A DNA stretch of 32,000 bases from Formosa sp. Hel1_33_131 (GCF_001735745.1 NZ_CP017260.1:2520001-2552000), one strand, 5' to 3'. Positions 9,743 through 27,488 are shown, counted from the stretch's first letter. The notes: generated by a model not told the origin, from the letters alone. Program-made: numbers and translations.

Positions 9743-12700
9743 ATGAACCAAATTATGAGAAACACCTTTATAAGATTAATTCTTTTTTTAATTACAACCA
9801 GCGCATTTGCTCAGGCAGATAAAGTAAAGGTGGTCAATAATGAAGACGGAATGAAATTAGTTGTCAATGGAGAAGACTTCATGATCAACGGAATGAATTG
9901 GGATTACTTCCCAATTGGTACAAATTACTCCTACAGTTTATGGAAGCAATCTGATGATGTCATTAAGGCAGCATTGGACGCAGAAATGGGCTTATTGAAA
10001 AACATGGGAGTCAATGTCATAAGGCAATATACAGGTGTACAGCCAAAATGGATACAATACATCTATGAGAACTATGGTATATATACTATGCTGAATCACT
10101 CCTTTGGACGTTACGGATTGACCGTAAACGGCGGATGGGTAGCAGTGACGGATTATAGAGATCCAGCAACCCAAGAGTTGTTGATGTCTGAAGCAACTAC
10201 ATTGGCTGAAGATTATAAAGACACGCCGGGTTTACTAATGTTCCTATTAGGAAACGAAAATAACTACGGTCTTTTTTGGGCAGGTGCTGAAACAGAAGAT
10301 TTTCCTGATGAAGAAGAAAAAAGAGATTTCGTTGGCGAAGAGCGTGGAAGACCGATGTACAAGCTGATGAACGATGCTACGATTAAAATGAAGAGTATTG
10401 ATTCCTCTCACCCCATAGCAATCTGTAATGGAGATGTCTTATTTATAGACATCATTGCTGAAGAGTGTAAAGACATCGATATTTTCGGAACCAATATGTA
10501 TCGTGGATCTTCTTTTACAGATGCATTCAAAACGGTTAAAGAAAAATTAGACATGCCTATTATGTTAACCGAGTTTGGTGCAGATGCATTTAACGCGATT
10601 GAAAATGCTGAAGACCAAAAAATGCAAGCCTATTATATGGTTGAAAACTGGAAAGATATTTACCAGAATGCTGCAGGTTTAGGGAAATCAGAGAATGCAA
10701 TAGGAGGTTTCACCTTTCAATTTAGCGATGGTTGGTGGAAATTTGGACAAACTAAAAATTTAGACATTCATGACAACAATGCCTCATGGGCAAATGGTGG
10801 TTATGCTTTGGATTTGGCTCCTGGTGAAAATAACATGAACGAAGAATGGTTTGGTATTTGTGCCAAAGGCCCTACAAATACTAGAGGACTTTATACCTTA
10901 TATCCACGTGCAGCATATTATGCATTAAAAACAGCACACCAATTAAATCCTTATGAAGAAGGTGTCACTCCAGAATTTGTAACAACTCATTTTGAGAACA
11001 TTCAATTAATGGATGCAGTTCTTCGAGCAAGAGGAGATAAAGCAGCTTTAGGAGGCAGTGAAAAAATTAAACTAAGCAATTTAAGAGCTGAGTTTTCAAC
11101 CTTTAATACAGGCGGTACACTTATTACAACTCCTGATAATGCAGATCCAAATACAAATGGATATCCAAATGAACTAGGTTTTGATCATATGCAATCTTAC
11201 TTTATTGGTGTAGAAGGGAATCCTACTTCTAATTTGCGTGCCAATGTGAATTTCAACATTCTTGGTCATGTTGCTGAGAATCCAATTGACGAAATATTTT
11301 ATGAAAATACAGGACGTTCATTTGAAGTTACTACAGACGATGGAAATGTAACTATTTCAGATCCAAACAGAGTTAAAATATACAATGCAGAATTTGATTG
11401 GAATGCTAAAGAATTTAATCTTAGAGGGTTTTACAGAACCGGGCATTACCACTGGGCTTATGAAGGCGATTTATTTAACTTGTACAGAGAAGCAAATTAC
11501 GGGCCTAATTTAGATTTGTATAACGGTGAAATTTCAGGTATTGAATTTGATGCCAAGGGAACACTAAAAGGTTTAAAAGCCGCTTTTGGTCCTCAACTTT
11601 GGTGGGGAGCAAATCCAGCAATATTATTGAAATATGGTAGAAATCTAGGTGGCTGGGATGTTGCTGCTGTTTACCACGAAGATATTGATGATGTAGGTAG
11701 GGCTGTTACTTCAATCGCCATACCACTTCCAAAAACACGTAGAGTCTCTTTGGCTGTCGAAAGACAATTTGGAGCTTTTAATTTTGAGATAGGTGGTTTA
11801 TGGGGAGGACAACCTCTAAACGGTCGTGAATTTCAAATAGCGGAAGGTACTACTGATAATTACATCATTTATACAGACAAAATCAACGAAAATGACAACT
11901 GGGGTGCAAAAGCCAAGTTATCCTATGAAAAGGGAGCTTTTAAATGGTATGCACAAGGCGCCAGCATGGGCTTAGTTGCTAATGGTGGATCGGATCAAAC
12001 ACAAACATTTACAGGTTGGAAATTGAAGGATTCTGGAAGTGGAAACCAAAACAACTTCCTTTCTGGTTTTTCATATACGTTTGGGGATTTTCAAATTGCC
12101 CCTAACTTTTTATGGCAAAAACCAATTGTGGGTGCCATGCCAAATGATTTAAATGGAGGCACTGGACGTCTGAGAAATATACAAGACGATCCATTTGCGG
12201 TAAGAGGAAACAGAGAAACCACTGCTGGAGAACTCTTATTTTCTTACGATCCAACACCAGGAACCTGGATGTACGAATGGGACAACGACCGAGCTGAAGA
12301 CGCAAAGTTCGCTTTCAATCTTGGCTTTGTATTTCGTCACCACCCAACAGCACAAGATGCAGCCGTTGGATTTTTAGCAAATCGTACTTCTTTTGCATTT
12401 CCGAATGCAGCACCTGCACAAGATTTATGGGAAGCACATTCACGCATCGTATCTAAAATGACTCCAGAAATTGGATTTATTGCCAACCTATATGCTGGTA
12501 ATGCACAGGCAAATGGTAGCGATCCTCGACTGATTCAACGTGTTGGAGGAGACATTCGATTGATTTATAATAAATTGAAATTGACCCATACATTTAAAAT
12601 TAACGATTGGGGACCTTTTGATTACCACCGAGATTTTAACTTGACGTACCCAGTACAATTAATGTTAGATCTATCGACCACCTTAGGAAAACCAGATTGG

Positions 12701-12892
12701 TTCATCCTTCCAAACACACAAGTAGGTGTCCGTGGAACATGGCGTTCATTAAATGAAAACTCGCCACGTTACTCACCTAATTTTGTGCCAGCTAACACAT
12801 TCCCACCAGTGCCTCCTATTAGTTCGGTAGGATTTCCTGACGGAAGTGAATGGGAAATTAGAACATACATACATATCAATATTGGAAAATAA
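9743..12892 (+). CDS. Secreted fusion protein: N-terminal clan GH-A (beta/alpha)8 glycosidase-like domain + about 620-aa C-terminal beta-barrel-like (putative outer-membrane) domain
   Basis: SPI signal peptide (LITTSAFA|QADK). GH-A motifs FMINGMNWDY, GVNVIRQY, LLGNENNYG (E172) and IMLTEFGAD (E277). The C-terminal part has many amphipathic G/Y/F/W-rich strands and no TM helices. No TonB box, plug or carboxypeptidase-regulatory motifs were recognised. Confidence 0.8.
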   Translation: MNQIMRNTFIRLILFLITTSAFAQADKVKVVNNEDGMKLVVNGEDFMINGMNWDYFPIGTNYSYSLWKQSDDVIKAALDAEMGLLKNMGVNVIRQYTGVQPKWIQYIYENYGIYTMLNHSFGRYGLTVNGGWVAVTDYRDPATQELLMSEATTLAEDYKDTPGLLMFLLGNENNYGLFWAGAETEDFPDEEEKRDFVGEERGRPMYKLMNDATIKMKSIDSSHPIAICNGDVLFIDIIAEECKDIDIFGTNMYRGSSFTDAFKTVKEKLDMPIMLTEFGADAFNAIENAEDQKMQAYYMVENWKDIYQNAAGLGKSENAIGGFTFQFSDGWWKFGQTKNLDIHDNNASWANGGYALDLAPGENNMNEEWFGICAKGPTNTRGLYTLYPRAAYYALKTAHQLNPYEEGVTPEFVTTHFENIQLMDAVLRARGDKAALGGSEKIKLSNLRAEFSTFNTGGTLITTPDNADPNTNGYPNELGFDHMQSYFIGVEGNPTSNLRANVNFNILGHVAENPIDEIFYENTGRSFEVTTDDGNVTISDPNRVKIYNAEFDWNAKEFNLRGFYRTGHYHWAYEGDLFNLYREANYGPNLDLYNGEISGIEFDAKGTLKGLKAAFGPQLWWGANPAILLKYGRNLGGWDVAAVYHEDIDDVGRAVTSIAIPLPKTRRVSLAVERQFGAFNFEIGGLWGGQPLNGREFQIAEGTTDNYIIYTDKINENDNWGAKAKLSYEKGAFKWYAQGASMGLVANGGSDQTQTFTGWKLKDSGSGNQNNFLSGFSYTFGDFQIAPNFLWQKPIVGAMPNDLNGGTGRLRNIQDDPFAVRGNRETTAGELLFSYDPTPGTWMYEWDNDRAEDAKFAFNLGFVFRHHPTAQDAAVGFLANRTSFAFPNAAPAQDLWEAHSRIVSKMTPEIGFIANLYAGNAQANGSDPRLIQRVGGDIRLIYNKLKLTHTFKINDWGPFDYHRDFNLTYPVQLMLDLSTTLGKPDWFILPNTQVGVRGTWRSLNENSPRYSPNFVPANTFPPVPPISSVGFPDGSEWEIRTYIHINIGK
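9821..10957 (+). other. Domain: clan GH-A TIM-barrel glycosidase-like module (GH2/GH5/GH158-type; family not resolvable by eye)
   Basis: Candidate acid/base Glu in GNEN (nt 10256-10258) and candidate nucleophile Glu in LTEFG (nt 10571-10573). They are 105 residues apart, as in retaining GH-A enzymes. Confidence 0.6.
11030..12889 (+). other. Domain: predicted large beta-barrel / all-beta region
   Basis: Alternating-polarity strands include LRANVNFNILG, FNLRGFYRTG, RVSLAVERQFGAFNFEIGGLWG, GAKAKLSYEKGAFKWYAQGASMG, FLSGFSYTFGDFQIAPNFLWQ, FAFNLGFVFRHH, VGGDIRLIYNKLKLTHTFKIN and the terminal EWEIRTYIHINIGK. Membrane-barrel status is inferred, not shown. Confidence 0.45.
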
Positions 12893-14341: not shown

Positions 14342-15274
14342 ATGAATAAAATAAATAAATATAAGTTAAGGATTCAAACACTCGTGTTGATGTCTTTTCT
14401 TTTTGCATCATTTTTCACGATTTCCAGTTGTGATACAGACGAAACCCAAACGGTTGCCACGTTTACAAATTTAACGATGTCTGATGAGTTTGATGTTGAA
14501 GGTGCTCCTAATTCTGAAATTTGGAATTACGATACAGGAACAGGTATCGATGGTTGGGGTAATAATGAGTTGCAATATTATACAGACCGTTCAGAAAATG
14601 TAACCGTACAAAATGGACTGTTAGTAATTTCTGCGATTGAAGAAAATTATAACGGCTCCTCATTTACATCGGCAAAACTGGTTACCAAAGGAAAATTCTC
14701 TCAAGCCTATGGACGTTTTGAAGCACGTATTAAAGTTCCGGGAGGATCAGGTCTTTGGCCTGCATTTTGGCTCTTAGGAGAAAACGTCGATGTGGACGGA
14801 TGGCCTCAATGTGGTGAGATTGATATTATGGAGTACCGCAGACAAGAACCTACAAAAGTAAGCGGCTCTATACACGGACCAGGGTATTCTGGTTTAACAG
14901 ATCCACAGGGACAAGTGACCAAAAGTTACGACTTAGGAAATGACCGTTATGACGCAGGATTCCATGTGTTTGGAATTGAGTGGAGCCCTGATTACATCAA
15001 CTATTATATAGACGATGTATTGTACAATCAAATTACACCTTCTGATATTGAAGTCACACCAGCCGATGCTGTTTACATCCTAAACGATGGTGTTGCAGCG
15101 ACTGCTGATACCGAAGCAATTCCGGGGACTGATATTACTGGGGATTGGGTTTTTAACAAACCCTTCTATATCATTATTAATTTAGCTGTTGGAGGTAATT
15201 TCCCAGGAAATCCTGACAGTGGAGAGACGTTTCCACAAAACATGCTAGTAGATTACGTAAGAGTATATAAATAA
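14342..15274 (+). CDS. GH16 endo-beta-1,3-glucanase (laminarinase) lipoprotein
   Basis: GH16 catalytic motif GEIDIMEY (ExDxxE), plus WPAFWLLG and the MSDEFD start of the jelly-roll. Lipobox FTISS-C30-DTDE. Confidence 0.9.
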   Translation: MNKINKYKLRIQTLVLMSFLFASFFTISSCDTDETQTVATFTNLTMSDEFDVEGAPNSEIWNYDTGTGIDGWGNNELQYYTDRSENVTVQNGLLVISAIEENYNGSSFTSAKLVTKGKFSQAYGRFEARIKVPGGSGLWPAFWLLGENVDVDGWPQCGEIDIMEYRRQEPTKVSGSIHGPGYSGLTDPQGQVTKSYDLGNDRYDAGFHVFGIEWSPDYINYYIDDVLYNQITPSDIEVTPADAVYILNDGVAATADTEAIPGTDITGDWVFNKPFYIIINLAVGGNFPGNPDSGETFPQNMLVDYVRVYK

Positions 15275-15298: not shown

Positions 15299-17605
15299 AT
15301 GAAAAATTTATTTAAAATATTAAAAAAAGTTTCACTACTTATTTTAGCAATCAGTTTTATGGGTTGTGACGATGATGAAGCGGTTTTACCACAACTTACA
15401 GCTGGTTTTACACACACGATTAATGCAGATACTGGTACAGTCACCTTTATCAATACCTCAGTAAATGCCTCAACATACGCTTGGGATTTTGGAGATGAAA
15501 GTACTTCAACGCTTATTAATCCAGTAAACGTCTATGCAAACGGTACATACTTGGTGGTTTTAAAGTCCTCCAATGTCGCAGGAGCTTATGATATTTTTTC
15601 TGATGAGATTACAATTAATATTCCTGAAATCGCAACCTTACCAATTACGTTTGATGGTGTAAATACCAACTATGATGCAACCGTTTTTGATGGTACAAGT
15701 TTTGAGATTCTTACAAATCCAGATCTTTCAGGTACAAACGCAGTGGAATCTAATGTAGGAGCAGTTACAAACAGTGGTGCGACTTACGAAGGCTTGTTCT
15801 TTGAATTAGGGGCACCCGTAGATTTAACGACTGACAAGTCGATCAAAATGAATTTCTGGGCAAATGCACCAGTAAACGTTTTATTAAAACTTGAAGATGG
15901 TTCTGCAGCAAATGTAGAAGCTACAGCCAGTCATACAGGAACTGGTTGGGAAGAAATTATTTTCACTTTTAACTCTGCCGCGAGTTACTCACAACTTACC
16001 ATGTTTGTAGATGGTGCGGGAACAACCGATGGGACATTCTATTTTGATGATATTACACAAATAGTATCGCCTCCAACACCTTGTACAGCAGAAACAGTTG
16101 AATCAATTTCCGCTGCTGATTTGAATATAACATTTATGTCAGATCCAACGGCTAGTGTTGTTAATGATGGTGCTACATTTGAGTGGATAGACAATCCAGA
16201 TTTTGATAACGCAGTAAATACTTCTTGTAAAGTAGGGAAAATCACAAAATTAGGAAACAACCCTTGGGATAACAATCAAATTGTCTTAGATGCGAAATTG
16301 GATTTTAATGCCAATGAAGGTTTAAAAATGAAAGTTTGGTCTTCAAGACCAAACACTGAAGTTAGAATTAAACTTGAAGAAGATGGAACTCCAGCTACTA
16401 ATGTAGAAAAGTTTTTAACTACATCAGTTACTGATGGATGGGAGGAATTAAGCTTCGCTTTTACTAGTGTTGATAGTGACAAATACAATAAAGTGGTTCT
16501 TTTCTTTGATTTGAATGCAAACAACACAGATACTTATTATTTTGATGATTTGACATTATATGGAACAGGAACAGGTCCTGTAGTTTGTGATCCTGAAACA
16601 ACAGAGTCTTACAGTGCATCCAACTTAAACATGACGTTTCAATCCGATCCAACTGCAGACTTTATCACTGATGGTGCTAGTTTTTCATGGGTAGATAACC
16701 CAGACTTTGACAATACTGTAAACAGCTCTTGTAAAGTAGGTAAAGTCGTAAAAGCAAATAACAATGCTTGGGATAACAATCAATATGATTTAGACGCAAA
16801 ATTAGATTTTAATGCGAATACTGGCTTAAAAATTAAAGTATGGTCTGCAAGACCAAATACCGAAGTTAGATTAAAATTAGAAGAGATTGGAAATGCAGGT
16901 AATAATGTTGAGAAATTTTTCACAACTTCAGTAACAAGCGGATGGGAAGAATTGACGTTCCCTTTTACAGCTGCTGATAGTGGTAAATTTAATAAGCTTG
17001 TTATTTTCTTTGATTTAAATGCTAATAACACCGATACGTACTACTTTGACGACCTTAAGCTTTATGGTTCTGGCGGCGGTGGTGGCGGCGGTGGCGGTTC
17101 ATATAATCTTACGCTTCCTATTAATTTTGAGACAACAGGACATGGAGCAAGTTGGACTTGGAATGTTTTTGAAAATGATTCGAACCCACCAGTTGAATTC
17201 GTAGCAAATCCAAATGCATCAGGAATAAACACCTCAAGTACAGTGGCTAAAATCACGGCACTTCAAGCTGGACAACCTTATGTTGGTTGTGAAACCGCAC
17301 ATGGCGAAATGGGAATTACGTGGGATCTTTCTGCATCCAATGCGATCATTAAGATTATGGTTTACAAAACCGTAATCAGTGATGTTGGTATTAAACTAGT
17401 AAATACTACTAATGGCGCACAAGGAGAAATCAAAGTTCCAAACACTGTAATTAATGCATGGGAAGAATTGACATTTGATTTTACGAGTCGTATTGGAAAT
17501 GGATTAGATGGCTCTACAAATATTGATCAGATTGTTGTATTCCCTGATTTCAATGCAAGAACATCGGATAATGTAGTGTATTTCGATAACATTACGTTTC
17601 AATAA
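15299..17605 (+). CDS. PKD-domain lipoprotein with four CBM-like beta-sandwich modules (putative laminarin-binding surface protein)
   Basis: Lipobox SFMG-C23-DDDE. PKD motif TVTFINTS..YAWDFGDEST (about aa 33-108). Four modules each end in YFDD/YFDN (aa about 112-255, 262-429, 430-597 and 600-768). A G9 linker precedes the last module. Confidence 0.75.
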   Translation: MKNLFKILKKVSLLILAISFMGCDDDEAVLPQLTAGFTHTINADTGTVTFINTSVNASTYAWDFGDESTSTLINPVNVYANGTYLVVLKSSNVAGAYDIFSDEITINIPEIATLPITFDGVNTNYDATVFDGTSFEILTNPDLSGTNAVESNVGAVTNSGATYEGLFFELGAPVDLTTDKSIKMNFWANAPVNVLLKLEDGSAANVEATASHTGTGWEEIIFTFNSAASYSQLTMFVDGAGTTDGTFYFDDITQIVSPPTPCTAETVESISAADLNITFMSDPTASVVNDGATFEWIDNPDFDNAVNTSCKVGKITKLGNNPWDNNQIVLDAKLDFNANEGLKMKVWSSRPNTEVRIKLEEDGTPATNVEKFLTTSVTDGWEELSFAFTSVDSDKYNKVVLFFDLNANNTDTYYFDDLTLYGTGTGPVVCDPETTESYSASNLNMTFQSDPTADFITDGASFSWVDNPDFDNTVNSSCKVGKVVKANNNAWDNNQYDLDAKLDFNANTGLKIKVWSARPNTEVRLKLEEIGNAGNNVEKFFTTSVTSGWEELTFPFTAADSGKFNKLVIFFDLNANNTDTYYFDDLKLYGSGGGGGGGGGSYNLTLPINFETTGHGASWTWNVFENDSNPPVEFVANPNASGINTSSTVAKITALQAGQPYVGCETAHGEMGITWDLSASNAIIKIMVYKTVISDVGIKLVNTTNGAQGEIKVPNTVINAWEELTFDFTSRIGNGLDGSTNIDQIVVFPDFNARTSDNVVYFDNITFQ
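16082..17089 (+). repeat. Intragenic tandem duplication, 2 x 504 nt (two 168-aa CBM-like modules)
   Basis: Units 16082-16585 and 16586-17089 both start at a Cys codon. The hand alignment is gapless with 119/168 identical residues (71%). The antisense 83-aa ORFs at 16276-16527 and 16780-17031 mirror each other at the same 504-nt offset. Confidence 0.9.
17066..17101 (+). repeat. GGN simple-sequence tract encoding GSGGGGGGGGGS inter-domain linker
   Basis: ggttctggcggcggtggtggcggcggtggcggttca. This is a GC-rich island in AT-rich DNA. The antisense frame gives a poly-Pro artefact ORF. Confidence 0.9.
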
Positions 17606-17614
17606 TTAATAAAT

Positions 17615-17647
17615 AAGGCTAGGGAAAAATTATCTCTAGCCTTTTTA
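17615..17647 (+). terminator. Rho-independent terminator ending operon 1
   Basis: AAGGCTAG(GG)-loop-(CT)CTAGCCTT gives an 8-10 bp stem followed by TTTTTAT. It begins 10 nt after the stop codon at 17605. Confidence 0.6.
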
Positions 17648-17911: not shown

Positions 17912-20900
17912 ATGACAAAGAAAGCTATTTTTTTAGGAAAAAATAAAGACGTGAATCAGGGTAAAGACATCGATGGAACCTTAGTCAACATTGACAACGA
18001 AGTCTATTATAAGATTTCGAATAGTGACAAAATGAGACCATTTTTCATGAGCATCGTTAGTGATTCAAATCACTGGATGTTTATTTCTAGTAATGGAAGT
18101 CTAACCGCTGGAAGAAAAAACTCTGAATTTGCATTATTTCCGTACTATACAGATGATAAAATCACGGAAGCAGCTGAAATCACAGGAAGTAAATCTATTT
18201 TCCAAGTAGTCAAAAATGATGAAGTTCATTTATGGGAACCTTTTTCGGATCGTTTTGCAGGAAAGTACAAAACCACTCGAAATTTATATAAAAACGAGTA
18301 TGGTAATAAAGTCTTGTTCGAAGAAATCAACCACGATTTAGAACTCACCTTTCAATACCAATGGAATTCTACAAACACCTTTGGATTTATAAAAAAATCG
18401 AAGCTTATCAATACTGCAACCTCTACTGTTGAAGTCAATGTATTGGATGGGATTCAAAACATTTTACCTTACGGCGTTGGTAGCGATTTACAAAATGCAA
18501 GTAGTAATTTAGTCGATGCCTATAAACGTAGTGAGTTAGAAAAAAGTTCAGGTTTAGGGATTTATGCTTTAAGCGCAATTATTGTAGATAAAGCAGAGCC
18601 TAGCGAAGCTCTAAAAGCAAATATTGTTTGGTCTTTAGGTTTAGACACTCCTAAATATTTACTCTCCTCCTTACAACTTGATAGCTTTAGAAAACAATAT
18701 GAAATTCAAGATGAGACGGATGTCAAAGCTGAAAAAGGCGCTTATTTTGTCAATTCTCAAATTGTATTAGCATCCCAAGAAGACAAAGAGTGGTTGCTTG
18801 TTGCAGAGGTGAATAAAAACCATTCCGCCATTGCAAAGTTGGTTAATAAAATTAAAACCAATGATGGTTTATGGGAATTGATAGACCAAAAAATTGAAAA
18901 AGGAACCACGCGTTTAATCGCCTTAAATGCGGCTTCTGATGGTTTACAGCTTTCCGCAGATAAATTTAGAGATACACGCCATTTCTCAAACACCTTGTTC
19001 AATATTATGAGAGGTGGGATTTTTGATAATAACTATCAAATTGAAAAATGGGATTTTAAAAATTACCTAGCAAAAGCCAATAAAAAAGTAGCAAGAACGA
19101 CAGAAGAAAATGTTGAAAAACTTCCTGAAAAGTTCACGCTTTCAGTGTTACAAGAACTCGCTCATCAAGTAGATGACACTAACTTTAGACGCCTTTGTTT
19201 CGAATACATGCCGTTAAAATTTAGCCGTCGTCATGGAGATCCGAGTCGTCCTTGGAATAAATTTTCAATCAACACCAAAAGTGAGATTGATGGTTCAAAA
19301 ATATTAGATTACGAAGGAAACTGGCGCGATATTTTCCAAAACTGGGAAGCATTGGCACATTCGTATCCTGCGTTTATTGAAAGTATGATCCATAAATTTT
19401 TAAACGCAACAACCTTTGATGGCTACAATCCATACCGTGTAACCAAAGGCGGATTTGATTGGGAAACTATTGAACCAGACGACCCTTGGTCGTACATCGG
19501 TTATTGGGGCGATCATCAAGTGATCTATTTACTCAAATTTTTAGAGTTTATTGAAAGCCACCAACCAGGTAAATTAGCAACTCTTTTTGATAAAGATTTA
19601 TTTGTCTATGCCAATGTTCCTTATAAGATCAAAAGCTACGACGCCTTGCTTGAAAATCCAAAAGATACCATTGAATTTGATGAAGCACTCGATCATAAAA
19701 TTAGAGAACAACGCGTAGAACTTGGAGCCGATGGTGCCCTACTTCGCGATGAGAATCGTTTTATTGTAAAAGTCAATTTCATTGAAAAAATACTAGCCAC
19801 CACTTTAGCAAAACTTTCAAACTTTATTCCAGAAGGTGGAATTTGGATGAATACGCAACGTCCTGAATGGAACGATGCCAACAATGCCTTGGTTGGTAGT
19901 GGGGTTTCTATGGTCACCTTGTATTATTTACGACGTTTCTTGAAATTCTTTGATACAGTCATAGTTCAATCGGACTTAGAAACCGTCGAAGTTTCTAAAG
20001 AACTCGTCACATTCTTTGATGCTATTTCAACGACCTTTAAAGATAACCAGAATTTACTATCCGGGCGTATCAATGATACAGACCGAAAAGTAATTTTAGA
20101 TGCCTTAGGAAATGCAGGAAGCAACTATAGAACTCAAATTTATAATGCCGCTTTTTCAGGAAGAAAAAGTGAACTATCTGTGAAGGATATAAAAGCATTT
20201 ATTGAGGTGAGTCTTCAGTATTTAGAGCACTCTATCGAAGTGAATAAACGAGAAGATAATTTATACCATGCATATAATTTAATGACCGTCAACGAAAACA
20301 ACAGCGTTTCAATTTCGTATTTAGATGAAATGTTAGAAGGTCAGGTTGCCGTTTTAAGTTCAAAATATTTATCAACCAAACAGTCCTTATCTGTTTTGGA
20401 TGCAATGAAAAACAGCAAGCTTTTCCGTCCAGACCAATACAGTTATTTATTATATCCGAATAAAGAATTAAAAGGATTCATTGGGCGTAACACAATTTCA
20501 GCAGCAGCTGTGTCATCGTCTAAATTATTAGGACAACTCGTAAGCGATAAAAATGTTCAAATTATAGAGAAAGATGTCAATGGTGATTACCATTTCAATG
20601 GAAATTTTAAAAATGCCAACGATTTAAAAGCGGCTTTAATCGAACTTTCAGGAACTTCTTACGAAGCACTCGCTCATTCAGAAACTCCAAAAATACTACA
20701 GATATTTGAAGAAGTATTTAACCATAAAGCCTTTACAGGTCGTTCAGGTACCTTTTATGGCTATGAAGGATTAGGATCCATCTATTGGCACATGGTGTCG
20801 AAATTGCAATTAGCAGTTTTGGAAAGCTGTAATTCAGCCATTGAATCGGAAGCTGATGCAGTGGATGTAGGGAATTTATTAGACCACTATTACGAAATAA

Positions 20901-21385
20901 ATGCAGGAATTGGTGTGCACAAATCACCAAAACTCTATGGAGCATTTCCAACCGATGCCTATTCGCATACACCGGCAGGAAAAGGTGCACAACAACCAGG
21001 AATGACGGGACAGGTAAAAGAAGATATTTTATCACGTTTTGGCGAACTAGGAGTGGTAGTTTCAGAAGGAACACTAGGATTCAATCCACGTTTACTACGA
21101 GGAAATGAGTTTTTGAAAGAAAGTAACATCTTTCATTACATCGCGATTCCTACTAAAAAAGACAGCATTTTGGTTTCAGAAGGTTCACTTTGTTTTACCT
21201 ACTGTCAAGTGCCTATTATATACACCATAGCAGAAGAAGACAGTTTAACGGTTGACTTCAGCAATGGAACCGCAAAAACGTTTAATAGCTTAAGCTTAGA
21301 TACAGAAACAAGCGAACACGTATTTAATCGTAATGGTGAAGTCGTTCAACTAAATGTACATATTAAAAAGAGTCGTTTAAAATAA
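17912..21385 (+). CDS. Cytoplasmic GH94-like (clan GH-Q) glycoside phosphorylase, most consistent with GH149-type beta-1,3-glucan phosphorylase
   Basis: 1157 aa with no signal peptide. RPEWNDANNAL (D655, nt 19874-19876) resembles the ADWNDCLN catalytic-Asp motif of GH94 phosphorylases. GNWRDIFQNWE resembles the RDxxQD phosphate/sugar-binding motif. Size and the GH16/GH17/GH30 context match what I recall for bacterial GH149. Confidence 0.6.
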   Translation: MTKKAIFLGKNKDVNQGKDIDGTLVNIDNEVYYKISNSDKMRPFFMSIVSDSNHWMFISSNGSLTAGRKNSEFALFPYYTDDKITEAAEITGSKSIFQVVKNDEVHLWEPFSDRFAGKYKTTRNLYKNEYGNKVLFEEINHDLELTFQYQWNSTNTFGFIKKSKLINTATSTVEVNVLDGIQNILPYGVGSDLQNASSNLVDAYKRSELEKSSGLGIYALSAIIVDKAEPSEALKANIVWSLGLDTPKYLLSSLQLDSFRKQYEIQDETDVKAEKGAYFVNSQIVLASQEDKEWLLVAEVNKNHSAIAKLVNKIKTNDGLWELIDQKIEKGTTRLIALNAASDGLQLSADKFRDTRHFSNTLFNIMRGGIFDNNYQIEKWDFKNYLAKANKKVARTTEENVEKLPEKFTLSVLQELAHQVDDTNFRRLCFEYMPLKFSRRHGDPSRPWNKFSINTKSEIDGSKILDYEGNWRDIFQNWEALAHSYPAFIESMIHKFLNATTFDGYNPYRVTKGGFDWETIEPDDPWSYIGYWGDHQVIYLLKFLEFIESHQPGKLATLFDKDLFVYANVPYKIKSYDALLENPKDTIEFDEALDHKIREQRVELGADGALLRDENRFIVKVNFIEKILATTLAKLSNFIPEGGIWMNTQRPEWNDANNALVGSGVSMVTLYYLRRFLKFFDTVIVQSDLETVEVSKELVTFFDAISTTFKDNQNLLSGRINDTDRKVILDALGNAGSNYRTQIYNAAFSGRKSELSVKDIKAFIEVSLQYLEHSIEVNKREDNLYHAYNLMTVNENNSVSISYLDEMLEGQVAVLSSKYLSTKQSLSVLDAMKNSKLFRPDQYSYLLYPNKELKGFIGRNTISAAAVSSSKLLGQLVSDKNVQIIEKDVNGDYHFNGNFKNANDLKAALIELSGTSYEALAHSETPKILQIFEEVFNHKAFTGRSGTFYGYEGLGSIYWHMVSKLQLAVLESCNSAIESEADAVDVGNLLDHYYEINAGIGVHKSPKLYGAFPTDAYSHTPAGKGAQQPGMTGQVKEDILSRFGELGVVVSEGTLGFNPRLLRGNEFLKESNIFHYIAIPTKKDSILVSEGSLCFTYCQVPIIYTIAEEDSLTVDFSNGTAKTFNSLSLDTETSEHVFNRNGEVVQLNVHIKKSRLK

Positions 21386-21400
21386 AATTTGTAAGATATT

Positions 21401-22693
21401 ATGAGAGCAACAAAGCATATATTAATTTTAATACTCCTTGTTTTTCTTGTAATATCTTGTAAAAATAAGCAATCAAATACGCAGAACCCGAACCAACAAA
21501 ATCAAAACGAAGTGACAGCTAAAGACATCTTAGGAAATTCAAAATATTTAGCGATCTCTTACGGAGGATATCGAAAAAAATCTCGAGATTTTCAACCCTC
21601 AATTGAAGAGTTAAAAGAAGATATGAAAATTCTTCATGCGATGAATATTAGAATATTGCGCACCTATAATGTGCGTTTGGCGCATACGTCTAATATTTTA
21701 AAAGCCATTCGGGAGTTGAAAAATGAAGATGCCAATTTCGAAATGTATATGATGGTTGGTGCTTGGATCGATTGTAAAAATGCTTGGACCGATCAACCGT
21801 TGAATCACCATGAAGAAAGCGAGAACAATGCCTCTGAGATTGATCGTGCAGTCGCTTTGGCACAAGAATTTCCAGATATTGTAAAAGTCATTGCCGTTGG
21901 AAATGAAGCCATGGTCAAATGGGCCGCCTCTTATTTTGTGCAACCCGCTGTGATTTTAAAATGGGTAAACCATTTACAAGCTTTAAAGAAAAAAGGAGAC
22001 CTATCCAAAGACTTATGGATCACCAGTTCCGATAATTTTGCTTCTTGGGGTGGGGGAGATCCTCAATACCATGTGGAAGATCTCACGAAATTAATCGAGG
22101 CTGTGGATTATCTATCTGTACATACCTATCCAATGCACGATACACATTACAATCCTATTTTTTGGGGCGTTTTCGGGGACGAAACCGAATTGTCAAGTTT
22201 GAAACGCATTGATATTGCCATGAACCGAGCCAAAACTTATGCCGTTTCACAAAGCGATAGTGTGGCAAGTTATATAAAGAGCTTGGGCATTAACAAACCA
22301 ATCCATATTGGTGAAACAGGTTGGGCAAGTTTTTCTAACGGTTATTACGGGGCTAAAGGCTCTAAAGCAACCGATGAGTACAAGGAGGCTATTTTTTACA
22401 ACCATATTCGTGAATGGACTAATGAAGCTAATATGTCATGCTTCTATTTTGAAGCCTTTGATGAACCATGGAAAGATGCGCATAACTCAGGAGGTTCTGA
22501 AAACCATTTTGGTTTATTTACGGTGGATGGTAAAGCAAAATACGTTCTCTGGGATTTGGTAGATAAAGGCGTTTTTGAAGGATTGACACGTGGCGGGAAT
22601 CCCATCACCAAAACCTATAATGGAAATAAAGAAGCACTATTCCTTGAGGTTGAATTGCCTCCGGTAAAAAAAGAAATCACAAAGAACCATTAA
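21401..22693 (+). CDS. GH17 beta-1,3-glucanase lipoprotein
   Basis: Lipobox LVIS-C20-KNKQSN with a Q/N-rich linker. VIAVGNEAMV (acid/base Glu) and IHIGETGWAS (nucleophile Glu) are present. FEAFDEPWK is typical of GH17. Confidence 0.85.
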   Translation: MRATKHILILILLVFLVISCKNKQSNTQNPNQQNQNEVTAKDILGNSKYLAISYGGYRKKSRDFQPSIEELKEDMKILHAMNIRILRTYNVRLAHTSNILKAIRELKNEDANFEMYMMVGAWIDCKNAWTDQPLNHHEESENNASEIDRAVALAQEFPDIVKVIAVGNEAMVKWAASYFVQPAVILKWVNHLQALKKKGDLSKDLWITSSDNFASWGGGDPQYHVEDLTKLIEAVDYLSVHTYPMHDTHYNPIFWGVFGDETELSSLKRIDIAMNRAKTYAVSQSDSVASYIKSLGINKPIHIGETGWASFSNGYYGAKGSKATDEYKEAIFYNHIREWTNEANMSCFYFEAFDEPWKDAHNSGGSENHFGLFTVDGKAKYVLWDLVDKGVFEGLTRGGNPITKTYNGNKEALFLEVELPPVKKEITKNH

Positions 22694-22694
22694 T

Positions 22695-24182
22695 ATGAAA
22701 CGTTTAAAAATACATCATTTTTTAATTTTATTCGCAATGCTCACAGCATGTACATCTAAAGAACCTTTGCAAGTAACCGTTTATGAAACGTCTGCGAATG
22801 GTAACAAGTTAACCGAAGTATCAGAATTTAGTACTTCTGAAAACCCTTCGAAAATTCAACTGAGTCCGGAACAAATATTCCAAACCATCACTGGTTTTGG
22901 GGGCTCATTTACGGAATCTTCTGCGTACTTACTAAATCGTTTGAGTAAAAAAAATAGAACTAAAATTATCGACGCTTACTTTAGTGAAAAAGGTGCCAAC
23001 TATTCATTGACCCGTACACATATTAGTTCTTGTGATTTTTCATTAAATAACTATACCTATGCGCCTATAGCGGATGATTTTGAGCTAAAACATTTCAGCA
23101 TCATAGAAGATATGGACGATTTAATCCCTATGATAAAAGACGCAATGGCCGTCTCTGAAGATGGATTTAAAATCATAGCTTCTCCATGGACCGCACCGCC
23201 TTGGATGAAAGATAATAAAGAATATGTTGGTGGTAAATTACTACCAGAATACTACGATACCTTTGCCTTATTTTTTTCTAAATACATAGATTATTATAAA
23301 GCTGAAGGCATTGATATTTGGGGTTTAACCCCCGTCAATGAGCCTCATGGAAATGGCAATAACTGGGAGAGTATGCATTTCTCTCCAGAAGAGGAAACCG
23401 ATTTTGTTCAAAACCATTTAGGACCAAAACTGGAAGCGGACGGAAAAGGAGCAATCAATATTTTAGGCTATGATCAAAACAGAGCTGGATTAAAAGAATG
23501 GGTCGATGTGATGTTTGAAAATGAAGCAGCTTCCAAGTATTATGCAGGAACCGCCATTCATTGGTATGAAAGTACTTATGATTTTTTCCCTAAAGCATTA
23601 CAATATGCTCATGACAAAGCACCTAACAAATACTTAATAGAAACCGAAGGCTGTGTAGATTCTGAAATTCCAAAATGGCAAGATGACAAATGGTATTGGT
23701 CTAAAGAGGCAACGGATTGGGGATTTGATTGGCGAGAGCAAGAAAAAAAATATTTACATCCAAAATACGCCCCTGTCAACAGATATGCCAGAGATATTAT
23801 TGGTTGCTTAAATAACTGGGTTGACGGTTGGGTCGATTGGAATATGGTATTGGACAGACAGGGTGGTCCAAACTGGTTTAAAAACTGGTGTGTTGCTCCT
23901 GTGATTGTAGATTCCGATAACGATGAAGTCTATTTTACGCCTTTGTATTATACGATGGCACATTTTAGTAAATACATACGACCCGGCGCCAAAGTGATTG
24001 GTCTGGATCATTCGGATACCGACCTACAAGTCACCGCTGCACAAAACCCTGATGGAACCATTGCAGTTGTGGTATTCAATGAAGGAACAACATTAAAAAC
24101 CTTTGAACTTTCTTTAGGAGAATCTTCAACAATAATAGCCATACAACCACAAGCCATACAAACGATTGTATTACCAAACTAA
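22695..24182 (+). CDS. GH30 family glycosidase lipoprotein (probable exo-beta-1,6-glucanase debranching laminarin)
   Basis: Lipobox MLTA-C19-TSKE. GFGGSFTESSAY, WGLTPVNEP (acid/base) and YLIETEGC (nucleophile) are GH30 motifs. Substrate is inferred from context. Confidence 0.85.
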   Translation: MKRLKIHHFLILFAMLTACTSKEPLQVTVYETSANGNKLTEVSEFSTSENPSKIQLSPEQIFQTITGFGGSFTESSAYLLNRLSKKNRTKIIDAYFSEKGANYSLTRTHISSCDFSLNNYTYAPIADDFELKHFSIIEDMDDLIPMIKDAMAVSEDGFKIIASPWTAPPWMKDNKEYVGGKLLPEYYDTFALFFSKYIDYYKAEGIDIWGLTPVNEPHGNGNNWESMHFSPEEETDFVQNHLGPKLEADGKGAINILGYDQNRAGLKEWVDVMFENEAASKYYAGTAIHWYESTYDFFPKALQYAHDKAPNKYLIETEGCVDSEIPKWQDDKWYWSKEATDWGFDWREQEKKYLHPKYAPVNRYARDIIGCLNNWVDGWVDWNMVLDRQGGPNWFKNWCVAPVIVDSDNDEVYFTPLYYTMAHFSKYIRPGAKVIGLDHSDTDLQVTAAQNPDGTIAVVVFNEGTTLKTFELSLGESSTIIAIQPQAIQTIVLPN

Positions 24183-24215
24183 CAAACTAACACACAAACT
24201 AAAAACCAACACATC

Positions 24216-25580
24216 ATGTCTAACACTCTTAACAAAGTCCCCTTAGGTCAAAAGATTGCCTTTGGCTTAGGAATGCTTGCCAACCAAATGTTTCCAGCAG
24301 CACTTGGAATTTTTATGGTCGTTCTCGTACAAAATTTAGGATTTCCAGGTTGGATGTGGGGAATCATATACTTTTTTCCGAGAATATTTGATTCTTTCAC
24401 AGATCCAATAATGGGGTTTATCTCAGATAACACCAAATCTAAATGGGGGAGACGTAGGCAGTATGTGTTTATTGGTGCGATTGTGATGGGAATTTCCTTT
24501 GCAATTATGTGGCAATTATATATAGATAGTGGCGTAGATTATAATTTTGTGTATTTTATGTTTTGGTCCTTTATCTTTTATTTAGGGCTCACTATTTTTA
24601 GTGTTCCTTACGTAGCGATGGGCTATGAGATGAGTGATGATTTTCATGAACGTACAAGCATCATGGCGGTTGCACAATGGATCGGCCAGTGGGCATGGGT
24701 TATAGCTCCATGGTTTTGGGTGATTATGTATATTAACGGCGATGATGGATGGTTTGAAACTGCAGAAGAAGCGACACGGACTTTAGCTATTTGGGTTGGT
24801 GTTATTTTAATGTTTGTGGCGATGGTTCCTGCACTATTTATCAAGAGTAAATCGACTTTAGACGAAGATTATGCCGATTTATCACTTAGTAATATTAAAG
24901 GAAGTTTTAAAGAAATCAAGTTAGGATTTCAAGAAGCGTTGAAAATTAAGCCGTTCCGTAAATTATGTATTTCAACTTTTCTAATTTTTAATGCCTTCAA
25001 TACGGTTGCTACATTTACCTTTTTTGTCATTGTATATCAGTTATTTAATGGAGATGCAGAAGCTGCAAATGCGGGATACTGGCCTTCGTTATTTGGATGT
25101 TTAGGGGCGTTGTCCACAACCTTTATCGTCATTCCGATTGTCACTAGGATGTCTCGTAAGCTAGGAAAGAAAAATGCATTTTTATGGTCTCAAGGGATTT
25201 CTATAATAGGGTACATACTCCTTTGGTTTTTATTGATTCCAGGAAAACCCTATATGTTTATTTTCGCCCTTCCTTTCTTCTCCTTTGGAATAGGAAGTTT
25301 ATTTACATTGATGATGTCCATGACTTCAGATGTAATTGATTTAGATGAATTAAATACAGGAAAACGAAGAGAAGGTATTTTTGGCGCTATTTATTGGTGG
25401 ATGGTCAAATTTGGTTTTGCAATTGCTGGAGCTTTGAGTGGAGTCATTCTATCCGTTATTGGTTTTCAAGAAGGCATTGCCTCTACGGAACAAGAAGGGG
25501 CTATCATTGGTTTGCGTGTATTCTTTTCGGGTTTCCCAATATTAGGAACTCTAATCGCTATGTGGATTATGCGTGACTAT
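24216..25580 (+). other. Domain: GPH/MFS transporter module (12 TM)
   Basis: The TM segments are arranged 6+6 around a charged central loop (KSKSTLDEDYADLSLSNIKGSFKEIK). Confidence 0.8.
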
Positions 25581-26564
25581 GATCTTACAGAAGAAAAAGC
25601 GGTAAAAATCAGTGCTGAACTAGCAAAACGAAAAGAGAAACCAACCTCTTTTTATCAAACAAATAAGTTAGCATCCTTACTCGCTTCAGGAATACAAATT
25701 GATTCGACTTCGGATACTGATTTCACTTCAAAATCGGATGCGGATATTAAAGCCCTGTTTTCAGAAACTTTAAATAAGGGTCTGCACGGCATGTGTTTTA
25801 GCCCGTATTTAGAAGGACAAAACATTGGAAATCAGTTATCGGAATCTCAAATCAGTCAACGTATGGATGTCATTGCACCTTACACTCAATGGGTGCGTTC
25901 ATTCTCCTGTACTGAAGGGAACGAGCATACACCTAAAATTGCCCACGAAAAACATTTAAAAACAATGGTGGGTGCATGGATCGGAAGTGATAAAGCTCAG
26001 AACGAAAAAGAGCTCAACACCTTAATCAAACTTGGAAAATCGGGGTTTGTAGATATCGCAGTTGTAGGGAATGAAACCTTGATGCGTGAAGAATTAACAG
26101 AAGAAGAATTGATTGCGTATATAAACCGTGTCAAACGCTCCCTACCAGGAATTCCTGTGGGTTATGTGGATGCCTATTACCAATTTGTAGAACGCCCTAA
26201 GCTGATTGATGCTTGTGACGTTATTTTAGCTAATTGCTATCCGTTTTGGGAAGGCTGTAGTATTGAGCAATCAGCAACGTATTTAAAGCAAATGTATGCC
26301 GTCACACAACAAGTAGCCAATGGGAAGCCTGTTATTATTACAGAAACAGGCTGGCCAAACCAAGGAGATCACACAAAAGATGCGGAACCTTCAGAAAACA
26401 ATGCGATGAAATATTTTATAGATACTGCCAATTGGGCGGGACAAAATGAAGTACCACTATTCTATTTCTCCTCATTTGATGAGTCATGGAAAGTACATCA
26501 CGAAGGAGATGTTGGAGCACGCTGGGGACTTTGGGATAAGAATGAGAATTTAAAATTTCAATAA
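24216..26564 (+). CDS. Fusion protein: 12-TM GPH/MFS-type sugar:cation symporter + C-terminal cytoplasmic GH17 domain
   Basis: A single uninterrupted 782-aa ORF. GPH motif RIFDSFTDPIMGFISD. I counted 12 hydrophobic segments in aa 1-455. Linker is aa 456-515. The GH17 part carries VVGNETLM (E620, nt 26073-26075) and IITETGWPN (E710, nt 26343-26345). Confidence 0.85.
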   Translation: MSNTLNKVPLGQKIAFGLGMLANQMFPAALGIFMVVLVQNLGFPGWMWGIIYFFPRIFDSFTDPIMGFISDNTKSKWGRRRQYVFIGAIVMGISFAIMWQLYIDSGVDYNFVYFMFWSFIFYLGLTIFSVPYVAMGYEMSDDFHERTSIMAVAQWIGQWAWVIAPWFWVIMYINGDDGWFETAEEATRTLAIWVGVILMFVAMVPALFIKSKSTLDEDYADLSLSNIKGSFKEIKLGFQEALKIKPFRKLCISTFLIFNAFNTVATFTFFVIVYQLFNGDAEAANAGYWPSLFGCLGALSTTFIVIPIVTRMSRKLGKKNAFLWSQGISIIGYILLWFLLIPGKPYMFIFALPFFSFGIGSLFTLMMSMTSDVIDLDELNTGKRREGIFGAIYWWMVKFGFAIAGALSGVILSVIGFQEGIASTEQEGAIIGLRVFFSGFPILGTLIAMWIMRDYDLTEEKAVKISAELAKRKEKPTSFYQTNKLASLLASGIQIDSTSDTDFTSKSDADIKALFSETLNKGLHGMCFSPYLEGQNIGNQLSESQISQRMDVIAPYTQWVRSFSCTEGNEHTPKIAHEKHLKTMVGAWIGSDKAQNEKELNTLIKLGKSGFVDIAVVGNETLMREELTEEELIAYINRVKRSLPGIPVGYVDAYYQFVERPKLIDACDVILANCYPFWEGCSIEQSATYLKQMYAVTQQVANGKPVIITETGWPNQGDHTKDAEPSENNAMKYFIDTANWAGQNEVPLFYFSSFDESWKVHHEGDVGARWGLWDKNENLKFQ
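25761..26561 (+). other. Domain: GH17 module fused to transporter C-terminus
   Basis: Gapless alignment to the downstream 302-aa GH17 at a 927-nt offset, with 156/258 identical residues (about 60%) by hand count. Confidence 0.85.
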
Positions 26565-26579
26565 TAAAACTACAGTACT

Positions 26580-27488
26580 ATGTCATTTAAAGAAGGTCAA
26601 CAATTTTCGCTAAAAAAAATCGATCAACCCTACGAATCTGGAGTTAATTTCACGAAACTATCTACAGAAGGTTTAGAAGAATTATGGAAACATACCTTAA
26701 ACAACGGAATGCACGGTTTGTGTTTTAGTATGTATGAAGACGGCCAAGGGCCTGGTAATAAAATTACAGAACATCAGGTTGATAGACGTATGCAAGTGAT
26801 CAAGCCTTACACCAAATGGGTGCGCTCATTTTCGTGTATTGAAGGCAATGAATTCATCCCTCGCATGGCGCACAAACACGGCATTAACACCTTGGTTGGT
26901 GCTTGGTTGGGTGATGACTTAGAAAAAAACGAAGAAGAACTAGAAGCCTTAATTGCATTGGCAAAAGAAGGCTGTGTAGATATAGCTGCCGTTGGCAATG
27001 AAGTGATGTATAGAGAAGAACTCACAGAAGCACAGTTGTTAGAATACATCCTTAGAGTAAAAGAAGCATTGCCCGGAATTCCAGTAGGCTATGTGGACGC
27101 TTATTATGAGTTTACACAGCGACCAAAAATCGCAAAAGCTTGTGATGTCATTTTAGCCAATTGCTATCCCTATTGGGAAGGCTGTAGCCAAGAAGACTCC
27201 TTAAATCACATTCAAAAAATGTTTGGCGAAGCAGTTGATGCGGCACAAGGAAAAAAAGTAATAATTACTGAATCTGGCTGGCCGAGTGAAGGCGGCAGTT
27301 TAAGAGGGGCGTTTTCATCTAAAGAAAATGCAATGCGCTATTTTATAAATGTCCAAAAATGGTCTAAAGAAGCCAATATAGATCTATTTTATTTCTCCTC
27401 CTTTGATGAATCATGGAAAGTGGGCACCGAAGGCGATGTTGGTGCCTATTGGGGTCTGTGGGATAAAAATGAGAAGTTGAAGTTTTAG
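26580..27488 (+). CDS. GH17 family protein, soluble, no signal peptide (cytoplasmic paralog of the fused domain)
   Basis: AAVGNEVMY and IITESGWPS catalytic motifs, plus FYFSSFDESWK. The N-terminus MSFKEGQQFSLKKIDQ is hydrophilic. Confidence 0.85.
   Translation: MSFKEGQQFSLKKIDQPYESGVNFTKLSTEGLEELWKHTLNNGMHGLCFSMYEDGQGPGNKITEHQVDRRMQVIKPYTKWVRSFSCIEGNEFIPRMAHKHGINTLVGAWLGDDLEKNEEELEALIALAKEGCVDIAAVGNEVMYREELTEAQLLEYILRVKEALPGIPVGYVDAYYEFTQRPKIAKACDVILANCYPYWEGCSQEDSLNHIQKMFGEAVDAAQGKKVIITESGWPSEGGSLRGAFSSKENAMRYFINVQKWSKEANIDLFYFSSFDESWKVGTEGDVGAYWGLWDKNEKLKF

Follow-up and report, generated by a model that had tools for sequence, protein, structure and literature searches.

A GH158-like glycosidase domain fused to a predicted plug-less outer-membrane barrel, a candidate TonB-independent channel, heads a laminarin utilization locus of Formosa sp. 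Hel1_33_131

The 32,000-nucleotide stretch of DNA from Formosa sp. Hel1_33_131 analyzed here (GCF_001735745.1, NZ_CP017260.1:2520001-2552000; hereafter the window) contains a laminarin polysaccharide utilization locus (PUL) whose first gene, at nt 9743–12892 on the + strand, encodes in one polypeptide a signal peptide, a clan GH-A glycosidase domain remotely related to glycoside hydrolase family 158 (GH158), a short linker, and a large predicted outer-membrane β-barrel (Table 1). The gene order of the window equals that of FORMB_24560–24750 of Formosa sp. Hel1_33_131 (Formosa B) gene for gene, beginning with glutathione peroxidase and GTP cyclohydrolase and reaching an aquaporin and then the nine genes of laminarin PUL 2. 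Because of this match, and because the 90% identity cluster of the protein includes a metagenome-assembled genome (MAG) entry of Formosa sp., we regard the gene as the orthologue of FORMB_24670. The nine genes encode, in order, the barrel fusion, a lipoprotein, GH16, a PKD-domain protein, GH149, GH17, GH30, a transporter of the major facilitator superfamily (MFS) fused with GH17, and GH17. A preliminary description, made from the nucleotide sequence alone, had placed the gene at the head of a glycan operon, and a β-glucan locus indeed follows it.

The open reading frame codes for 1049 amino acids (aa) and a stop codon, exactly the position and length given in that description. It is far beyond chance: a homologue search returned more than 5400 matches, and full-length relatives of ~1045 aa are conserved. 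Both in-frame start codons, M1 (nt 9743) and M5 (nt 9755), leave the signal peptide intact, and nearly all orthologues are annotated from the second, which gives 1045 aa. The N-terminus, MNQIMRNTFIRLILFLITTSAFA↓QADK, is of the signal peptidase I (SPI) type and lacks a lipobox cysteine, as had been read from the sequence; Q24 is invariant among the relatives in our alignment A1, and the published predictions for the Formosa B orthologue agree (SignalP positive, LipoP negative, TMHMM 0; PMC6246565). A lipobox, sought at the N-terminus of 357 full-length relatives as a clue to the side on which the N-terminus lies, was found in effectively none of them. At its other end the protein reads ...EWEIRTYIHINIGK.

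Table 1. Features of the barrel-glycosidase gene and of the laminarin locus that it heads (positions in the window)
Feature	Position (nt)	Strand	Basis or remark
Whole gene: signal peptide, GH158-like glucanase, linker, outer-membrane barrel (predicted)	9743..12892	+	FORMB_24670 orthologue
Signal peptide, residues 1-23, AFA↓Q cleavage, SPI type, without lipobox	9743..9811	+	
Clan GH-A (β/α)8 domain, residues 24-405, remote GH158 relative	9812..10957	+	Pfam, AF2, Foldseek, family profile
N171-E172, predicted acid/base pair, GNEN motif	10253..10258	+	Aligns with BuGH158 N136/E137
E277, predicted nucleophile, TEFG motif	10571..10573	+	Aligns with BuGH158 E220
Linker, residues 406-441: helices 410-418 and 422-436, then GGSEK	10958..11065	+	Model DSSP
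Predicted outer-membrane β-barrel, residues 442-1049, 24-26 strands, no plug	11066..12889	+	Model, Foldseek, conservation
Last strand SEWEIRTYIHINI, residues 1035-1047, β-signal-like	12845..12883	+	Conservation
Partner lipoprotein, 469 aa	12905..14314	+	12 nt downstream; FORMB_24680 orthologue
GH16 laminarinase-type lipoprotein, SSC↓DTDE	14342..15274	+	Family matches, signal sequence
PKD-domain lipoprotein, GC↓DDDE, likely surface glycan-binding protein	15299..17605	+	
Terminator-like hairpin, 11-bp stem and T run	17615..17643	+	Pattern match only; such sites not above chance in the region
GH149 phosphorylase, GH17 and GH30 lipoproteins, MFS-GH17 fusion, GH17	17912..27488	+	

The structure was modelled with AlphaFold2 (AF2). 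A first model, built from 66 close relatives (76–97% identity), reached a predicted local distance difference test (pLDDT) of 59 and a predicted template modelling score (pTM) of 0.43 and was discarded as too poor; a second, built from an alignment of 141 sequences that included relatives at 34–49% identity, reached a pLDDT of 88 and a pTM of 0.77. Its strand and helix pattern in the N-terminal domain fits a triosephosphate isomerase (TIM) barrel that starts at residue 28, directly after the signal peptide, and extends with its packed helices to about residue 436. The motifs LLGNENNYG (E172) and MLTEFGAD (E277) provide the two glutamates of a retaining clan GH-A enzyme. Among 450 fused family members, N171 is kept in 448 and E172 and E277 in 447 each, with both glutamates present together in 447, and R94, N118, N171, E172, Y253, E277, and W331 are each conserved in at least 98%.

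For the family of this domain, GH158 is the best match, albeit a remote one. A profile of the 141 relatives matches the endo-β-1,3-glucanase BuGH158 (6PAL, E 2e-8) and GH158(Pro) (9oro, E 8e-8), which rank ahead of the GH2 β-galactosidases, while a search of the PDB with the single sequence returned no GH158 entry. In Foldseek, GH158 structures (9p26, 9oro, 6pal) take ranks 1–4, 6, and 7 (E 2.5e-14 to 1e-11) at an identity of only 12–15%; a GH157 laminaribiose complex and then GH2 glucuronidases follow below them. When aligned by hidden Markov model, the GNE and TE.G motifs of the family fall on N136/E137 and E220 of BuGH158 (chain residues 114/115 and 198, a 22-residue offset), placing the acid/base pair after β4 and the nucleophile after β7; these are the residues whose mutation abolishes the activity of that enzyme (PMC7157763). 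The domain is thus apparently an active retaining glycosidase of clan GH-A, with a β-1,3-glucan as its presumed substrate. The signature and both glutamates reported in the preliminary description are accordingly present, and their possible misalignment with the catalytic positions of the clan was not borne out; of the candidate families it named, the GH158-type β-1,3-glucanase is favored, while GH2 and GH5 are not the best match.

The Pfam match to the GH2 TIM barrel is weak (GH2_C, PF02836; E 1e-5 to 7e-7, 25–29 bits against a cut-off of 21) and covers profile positions 7–220 of 302; NCBIfam has no match to the enzyme domain. We rejected the GH2 assignment: the sugar-binding jelly-roll and Ig-like domains that a GH2 protein by definition carries ahead of its TIM barrel are missing here, and the protein should therefore not be filed under that family. 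BuGH158 differs in its own way: it is a lipoprotein, and its active site is shaped by an Ig-like domain at the C-terminus that packs on α7/α8 (PMC7157763), whereas the present protein has an SPI signal and continues from the TIM barrel into two helices and a 600-residue membrane barrel; by secondary structure only, residues 325–405 of the model form short strands and helices and no 8-stranded sandwich. Shared with the GH158 structures are the GH-A TIM barrel, the aligned catalytic residues, and the occurrence in β-1,3-glucan loci. A 2026 preprint lists a GH158, which may be the orthologue, in the laminarin PUL of Formosa agariphila. Three fused relatives (P0148, P0166, and P0234) lack both catalytic glutamates (GSSHNWG / F[ST]LGG; GNDKVF / HGIGAD) and keep the whole architecture, which suggests that the domain has a binding-only role in some lineages.

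The C-terminal ~600 residues are all-β in the model, with 26 strands of 7–17 residues between positions 442 and 1047 and a few short loop hairpins; in about two-thirds of the long strands, hydrophobic residues make up at least two-thirds of one face, and the other face is mostly polar. Foldseek matched this part to outer-membrane barrels only (BtuB, MOMP, OpdQ, PfeA, ZnuD, and PirA; E 1e-9 to 1e-7). A signal peptide, an even-numbered series of amphipathic antiparallel strands, and the alternation of tight turns and long loops, here with a consistent parity over all 26 strands, are the features of outer-membrane proteins assembled by the β-barrel assembly machinery, and all were found. The assembly signal is visible in the last strand, where E1038 is conserved in 98% of the sequences and position 1042 is occupied by Y in 94% and by F in the other 6%, the family C-termini reading ...E.Q.Y..Y.F, L or I. 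Outside the Bacteroidota the proteins stop directly after this strand (...Y.F or L), as in the classical signal, whereas the Bacteroidota clade to which the present protein belongs adds Gly-Lys, so that its match to the β-signal is internal rather than terminal.

On the strength of the model, the C-terminal part is supported as a large plug-less outer-membrane barrel, predicted to have 24–26 strands, in keeping with the barrel of more than 20 strands previously proposed and unlike the soluble β-sandwich, propeller, or β-helix considered as alternatives to it. The earlier domain limits (glycosidase ~27–405, barrel from ~430) were right in outline, except that packed helices continue to ~436 and the barrel starts at ~442. 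The linker between the two domains is modelled with a pLDDT of 93–96 over residues 401–430 and 76 over 431–440, is poorly conserved in distant relatives, and is missing from barrels that occur without an enzyme. The barrel belongs to no described family. Residues 415–1049 gave no Pfam match at E values up to 1, and neither did the stand-alone relatives; NCBIfam has no match to the barrel region, and a sequence search of the PDB found none for the C-terminal region. Pfam and NCBIfam searches with the whole protein found no Plug, TonB_dep_Rec, CarboxypepD_reg, or TIGR04056, and there is no TonB box; the region ahead of the barrel is the glycosidase domain rather than a plug, and stand-alone barrels begin ~8 residues after their signal peptide. 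A type Va autotransporter is not indicated either (PF03797 unmatched; ~26 strands in the model versus 12), and for the sugar porins (LamB, OprB, OprD/ChiP, and KdgM) there is no Pfam membership and a weak structural likeness to OpdQ and MOMP.

Published proteomes of Formosa B show that the orthologue is strongly induced by laminarin. In soluble, membrane, and extracellular fractions, FORMB_24670 made up 0.18, 1.19, and 0.67% of relative intensity-based absolute quantification (%riBAQ) on laminarin and 0.0012, 0.0061, and 0.0115% on glucose (PMC6246565 Table S3). These values correspond to an induction of ~200-fold in the membrane fraction and to a membrane level that exceeds each of the two SusC-like proteins induced by laminarin (0.46 and 0.45) by a factor of 2.6. 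The order of the fractions, membrane > extracellular > soluble, is that of TonB-dependent receptors, which is supportive although not a topology experiment. For FORMB_24680, the lipoprotein encoded next to it, detection in the three fractions was limited to laminarin-grown cells, save for a trace in the control membrane fraction, and both proteins were seen in bloom metaproteomes (PMC6246565). Unfried et al. (2018) name FORMB_24670 “GH2 family” or “hypothetical protein” (PMC6246565), the gene was called a “GH2 beta-glycosidase” as late as 2026 (PMC13188888), and no mention of a barrel, porin, or membrane domain for it was found in the literature searched, which left most subscription journals uncovered.

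A scan of species-representative genomes gave at least 591 related stretches, of which the best 80 are all from Bacteroidota (Flavobacteriaceae, Saprospiraceae, Lewinellaceae, Chitinophagales, and Cyclobacteriaceae). Neighboring genes were counted in 84 related loci, 55 of them with at least 8 kb on both sides for the regulator and SusC/D counts. The 469-aa-type lipoprotein lies directly downstream in 76 of 82 loci, usually after a gap of 5–26 nt and with a conserved SC↓ERD.SDD start, and some loci have longer fused lipoproteins of 630–1136 aa. GH16 occurs in 77, GH17 in 51, GH149 in 50, and GH30 in 38 of the 84 loci, a BguR-type regulator directly upstream in 43 of the 55, and a SusC/D-like pair near the gene in 12 of the 55. 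Some relatives carry additional N-terminal modules before the glycosidase domain (P0125, P0286, P0289, P0302, and P0337); those of 1340–1378 aa have ~340 extra N-terminal residues, the start of which resembles a second copy of the domain in P0125, and P0239 has a CBM4_9 in this position.

The architecture had been thought an unusual feature of Bacteroidota, but it recurs down to ~28–37% identity in Myxococcota (Archangium, Myxococcus, and Corallococcus), Bradymonadia, and Gammaproteobacteria; in Archangium gephyra and two MAG contigs it stands in every case with GH16, and with GH1 or GH3 and an SBP_bac_5/ATP-binding cassette (ABC) or MFS_2 importer. Loci of the Myxococcota type have two conserved small lipoproteins (~185 and ~215 aa) right after the barrel gene (13218-14416 in L002, 13129-14849 in L003, and 13224-14506 in L004). 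The second, which contains an internal duplication in L003 (387 aa), bears a faint similarity to CBM_11, and BLAST comparison of the 469-aa lipoprotein with the two small ones gave no significant match (E ~0.1–0.6).

The barrel also exists by itself. Searched alone, it matches 517 clusters at 50% identity. Stand-alone barrels are ~590 aa long, start with a signal peptide of their own, and finish in ...Y.F. In Gammaproteobacteria these stand in two types of operon, glucokinase-[barrel]-substrate-binding protein-ABC permeases-ATPases-GH1-GH16 and LacI-GH1-GH16-CBM4_9/GH16-[barrel]. No other outer-membrane uptake gene is found in these operons; a gene for a TolC-type outer-membrane efflux protein lies downstream, as part of what looks like an ABC export set. 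This context is the strongest argument for the barrel as a passage: because stand-alone barrels are placed in uptake operons, the barrel itself would be the outer-membrane passage for β-glucan oligosaccharides and the glucanase an add-on. The TonB-independent, substrate-specific channel envisaged in the preliminary description is thus strongly supported by comparative context, though not as a replacement for SusCD in every case, given the 12 loci in which the pair is present.

On which side of the membrane the enzyme sits can be judged from the strand order of the model. All tight turns of 2–4 residues connect even with following odd strands (2-3, 4-5, 8-9, 10-11, 12-13, 14-15, 16-17, 20-21, and 22-23), almost all loops of 18–36 residues connect odd with even strands, and both the start of strand 1 and the C-terminus lie on the side of the short turns. 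By the usual convention, tight turns of outer-membrane barrels are periplasmic, so that strand 1 would begin and strand 26 end in the periplasm. Only five residues, GGSEK, separate the last helix from strand 1; the strand parity and this short spacer therefore attach the glucanase to the periplasmic rim, unless helix 422–436 threads the lumen. On this basis the glucanase is most probably located at the periplasmic mouth of the barrel, which speaks against an enzyme outside the cell, whether feeding its own pore or displayed in the manner of an autotransporter, as had been suggested. There is a precedent in PlpD: its N-terminal enzyme domain was for a long time taken to be secreted but lies in the periplasm (PMC11116518). 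Mean-field direct coupling analysis of 454 sequences (Meff 178) did not pass its own control and was discarded, as only 1 of the 80 highest-ranking barrel pairs joined neighboring strands and indel regions dominated the signal. Residues 835–856 (nt 12245-12310; YDPTPGTW.YEWDND.(R/K)EDA) are among the most conserved barrel segments, stand-alone forms included; strand parity would put this motif in the periplasm, where a connection of 21 residues is unusual, and it might serve for docking or reach into the lumen.

Compartments for the remaining products of the locus were assigned from signal sequences. The partner lipoprotein, with CBM30/CBM11-like, Big_2, and discoidin/CBM-like modules (CBM, carbohydrate-binding module), has acidic residues after its lipobox cysteine (MSC↓ERDISDQ), and the acidic residues after the cysteine of the GH16 lipoprotein suggest surface exposure. 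The hairpin, in the 306-nt gap between the PKD and GH149 genes, appears to close a first transcription unit that comprises the barrel, lipoprotein, GH16, and PKD genes. Behind it, GH149 and the last GH17 are without signal peptides, and the GH17 and GH30 lipoproteins are without acidic residues after their cysteines. The first unit looks like an outer-membrane and surface module, and the second like a periplasmic, inner-membrane, and cytoplasmic one. The activities of the Formosa B enzyme orthologues have been reported (PMC6246565). The transporter of the second unit, an MFS/GPH sugar transporter fused to a C-terminal GH17 (24216-26564, +), is FbGH17B (FORMB_24740), described as coupling hydrolysis and uptake (PMC6246565).

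We propose, with a probability of about 0.6, that the protein is an integral outer-membrane protein and works as a TonB-independent channel for laminari-oligosaccharides, to which a GH158-like glucanase is covalently tethered and which has a CBM lipoprotein of the cell surface as its partner. Residues 442–1049 would form a plug-less, substrate-specific diffusion channel for β-1,3-glucan (laminarin) oligosaccharides, joined at the start of strand 1 to the enzyme by the short two-helix linker. The surface lipoproteins (the 469-aa CBM/Big_2 protein, GH16, and the PKD protein) would capture and nick laminarin, the chains of which would thread through the barrel and be cut by the tethered glucanase as they emerge; back-diffusion would be blocked and the gradient kept steep, a hydrolytic ratchet taking the place of TonB energy. 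The breakdown would be completed by the GH17 and GH30 lipoproteins, which face the periplasm, and by the MFS-GH17 fusion in the inner membrane. A wider generalization is advanced only tentatively and with less than even confidence: the 26-strand channel, the CBM lipoprotein as lid or feeder, and the periplasmic ratchet glucanase may make up a hitherto unrecognized import machine that spans phyla and does without SusC/D and TonB, and that could be the dominant entry route for laminarin in bloom-forming flavobacteria like Formosa Hel1_33_131.

Several points weigh against this proposal. The nearest characterized enzyme, BuGH158, has its predicted site of action on the cell surface (PMC7157763), and the CBM4_9 at the N-terminus of P0239 would fit an external enzyme. 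Since both glutamates have been lost in three divergent family members, hydrolysis is not essential in every member. A plug-less 26-stranded barrel would be a very wide hole unless the loops fold inward, as we assume; closure of the barrel, occlusion of its lumen, and the position of the glycosidase domain are deduced from secondary structure, confidence scores, and Foldseek matches. Moreover, with SusC/D in 12 of the 55 loci and SusCD laminarin PULs elsewhere in Formosa B, the barrel may be an auxiliary rather than the main route of import.

The most serious competitor keeps the channel and places the glucanase on the cell surface, brought there by a helix that threads the lumen, as in type Va systems, or by another export route, where it would feed its own pore; we consider this unlikely, although well above the other alternatives. 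It would agree with the predicted cell-surface location of both BuGH158 and BuGH16 in Bacteroides uniformis (PMC7157763), with the position of helix 422–436 directly before strand 1, as in autotransporters, with the CBM module before the glycosidase domain in one relative, typical of enzymes that meet polymeric substrate, and with apparent co-transcription with three lipoproteins whose acidic residues after the cysteine suggest surface exposure. However, strand parity sets the start of strand 1, five residues past the helix, in the periplasm, the 15-residue helix is short for the span of a barrel and cannot fill a 26-strand lumen, and stand-alone barrels work without such a helix. Export of a 400-aa TIM barrel (750 aa in the tandem variants) would also need a mechanism that has no support here, the locus already encodes a surface GH16, and PlpD illustrates how the assumption of a secreted enzyme can mislead (PMC11116518).

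Alternatively, the barrel could be a mere anchor with a closed or loop-filled lumen, import being left to SusC/D or other transporters encoded elsewhere in the genome. We judge this improbable. The SusC/D genes that adjoin the gene in 12 of 55 loci and the two other laminarin PULs with SusCD in Formosa B (PMC6246565) are what such an arrangement would lead one to expect, but enzyme-less barrels are conserved in uptake operons of Gammaproteobacteria in which nothing else would serve for uptake across the outer membrane, a barrel of ~600 residues is costly compared with a lipid tail, and its loop motifs are conserved across phyla, suggesting a function of their own. Least probable by a wide margin is a porin that exports a self-made β-glucan, with the hydrolase trimming it in the periplasm as in BcsC/BcsZ, PgaA/PgaB, or AlgE/AlgL. 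An N-terminal periplasmic domain followed by a C-terminal barrel does resemble PgaA and BcsC, yet none of the loci examined contains a glycosyltransferase or synthase, the neighbors are catabolic enzymes, sugar importers, glucokinase, and LacI-, ROK-, or BguR-type regulators, and the orthologue is induced by external laminarin (PMC6246565); exopolysaccharide export was rejected on this genomic context.

The proposed channel with its tethered glucanase shares traits with several known systems. As with SusC/SusD, the gene for an outer-membrane barrel has that for a surface lipoprotein right downstream, at the head of a PUL and under induction by the substrate, but the present system has no plug, TonB box, carboxypeptidase-regulatory-like domain, or TIGR04056, 24–26 predicted strands compared with the 22 of SusC, a CBM/Big_2 partner in place of the tetratricopeptide-fold SusD, and a distribution that reaches outside the Bacteroidota. 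The maltoporins LamB and ScrY, the chitoporin ChiP, CymA, and OprB are sugar-specific channels of 12–18 strands, often trimers, without a fused enzyme. With LamB/ChiP-type channels the present protein would share a TonB-independent passage for a linear oligosaccharide through a dedicated barrel encoded in the catabolic operon, although it is far larger and has no sequence kinship to them. LptD also has a 26-stranded barrel, an N-terminal periplasmic domain, and a lipoprotein partner, LptE, which plugs its lumen, and it exports lipopolysaccharide. The likeness to LptD extends to strand number, N-terminal soluble periplasmic domain, and partner lipoprotein, and no sequence or Pfam kinship was found.

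An N-terminal globular enzyme followed by a C-terminal outer-membrane barrel is known from PlpD (type Vd), EstA, and NalP, the enzyme of PlpD being periplasmic (PMC11116518), but these proteins have 12 or 16 strands, are members of the Omp85 or autotransporter families, contain a POTRA domain or a helix that fills the pore, carry no glycosidase, and are not nutrient channels. The MFS-GH17 protein of the same locus likewise joins a transporter and a β-1,3-glucan hydrolase in one chain; it is an inner-membrane α-helical protein with a C-terminal enzyme of another family and has already been described, in contrast to the outer-membrane fusion. The myxobacterial GluM is an outer-membrane β-barrel reported to have β-glucanase activity. 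We rejected GluM as a member of the present family, since it is described as an Oar homologue, of a different family without a GH-A TIM barrel; Oar is a protein resembling TonB-dependent transporters. Proteins of the present family occur separately in Corallococcus genomes.

Among the fluxes of the marine carbon cycle, that of laminarin is one of the largest, and SusC/D expression is the basis on which models, and even field quantifications, describe how Bacteroidota take it up. Yet the top laminarin-induced outer-membrane protein of a model bloom bacterium is an unannotated fusion of a barrel and a glucanase, whose family is present at no fewer than ~590 loci of species-representative genomes and in thousands of protein clusters from metagenomes. 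What would be new is the fusion of a glycoside hydrolase to a substrate-specific outer-membrane channel whose barrel represents a new family, and the channel role is the part that we hold as probable. Should the barrel prove to be a channel, a common route of uptake is overlooked wherever SusC/D is required to define a PUL, a TonB-independent branch has to be added to the “selfish uptake” model, and the covalent channel-enzyme pair offers a simple, testable case of hydrolysis-driven directional transport. The locus would then have one transporter-enzyme fusion per membrane, barrel-glucanase in the outer and MFS-GH17 in the inner, and a widespread misannotation as “GH2 beta-galactosidase” would be corrected.

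Some minor features of the locus complete the picture of the window. Upstream of nt 9743, including nt 9229-9742, the neighbors are the aquaporin gene and a TetR-family gene on the other strand, and the BguR-type regulator (Y_Y_Y/LuxR, ~880 aa) does not adjoin this PUL. The 469-aa and the 768-aa PKD lipoproteins fall into one single-linkage homology cluster across loci with no direct match to each other, and they may share the laminarin-binding modules CBMxx/CBMyy (bioRxiv 2023.09.07.556657).

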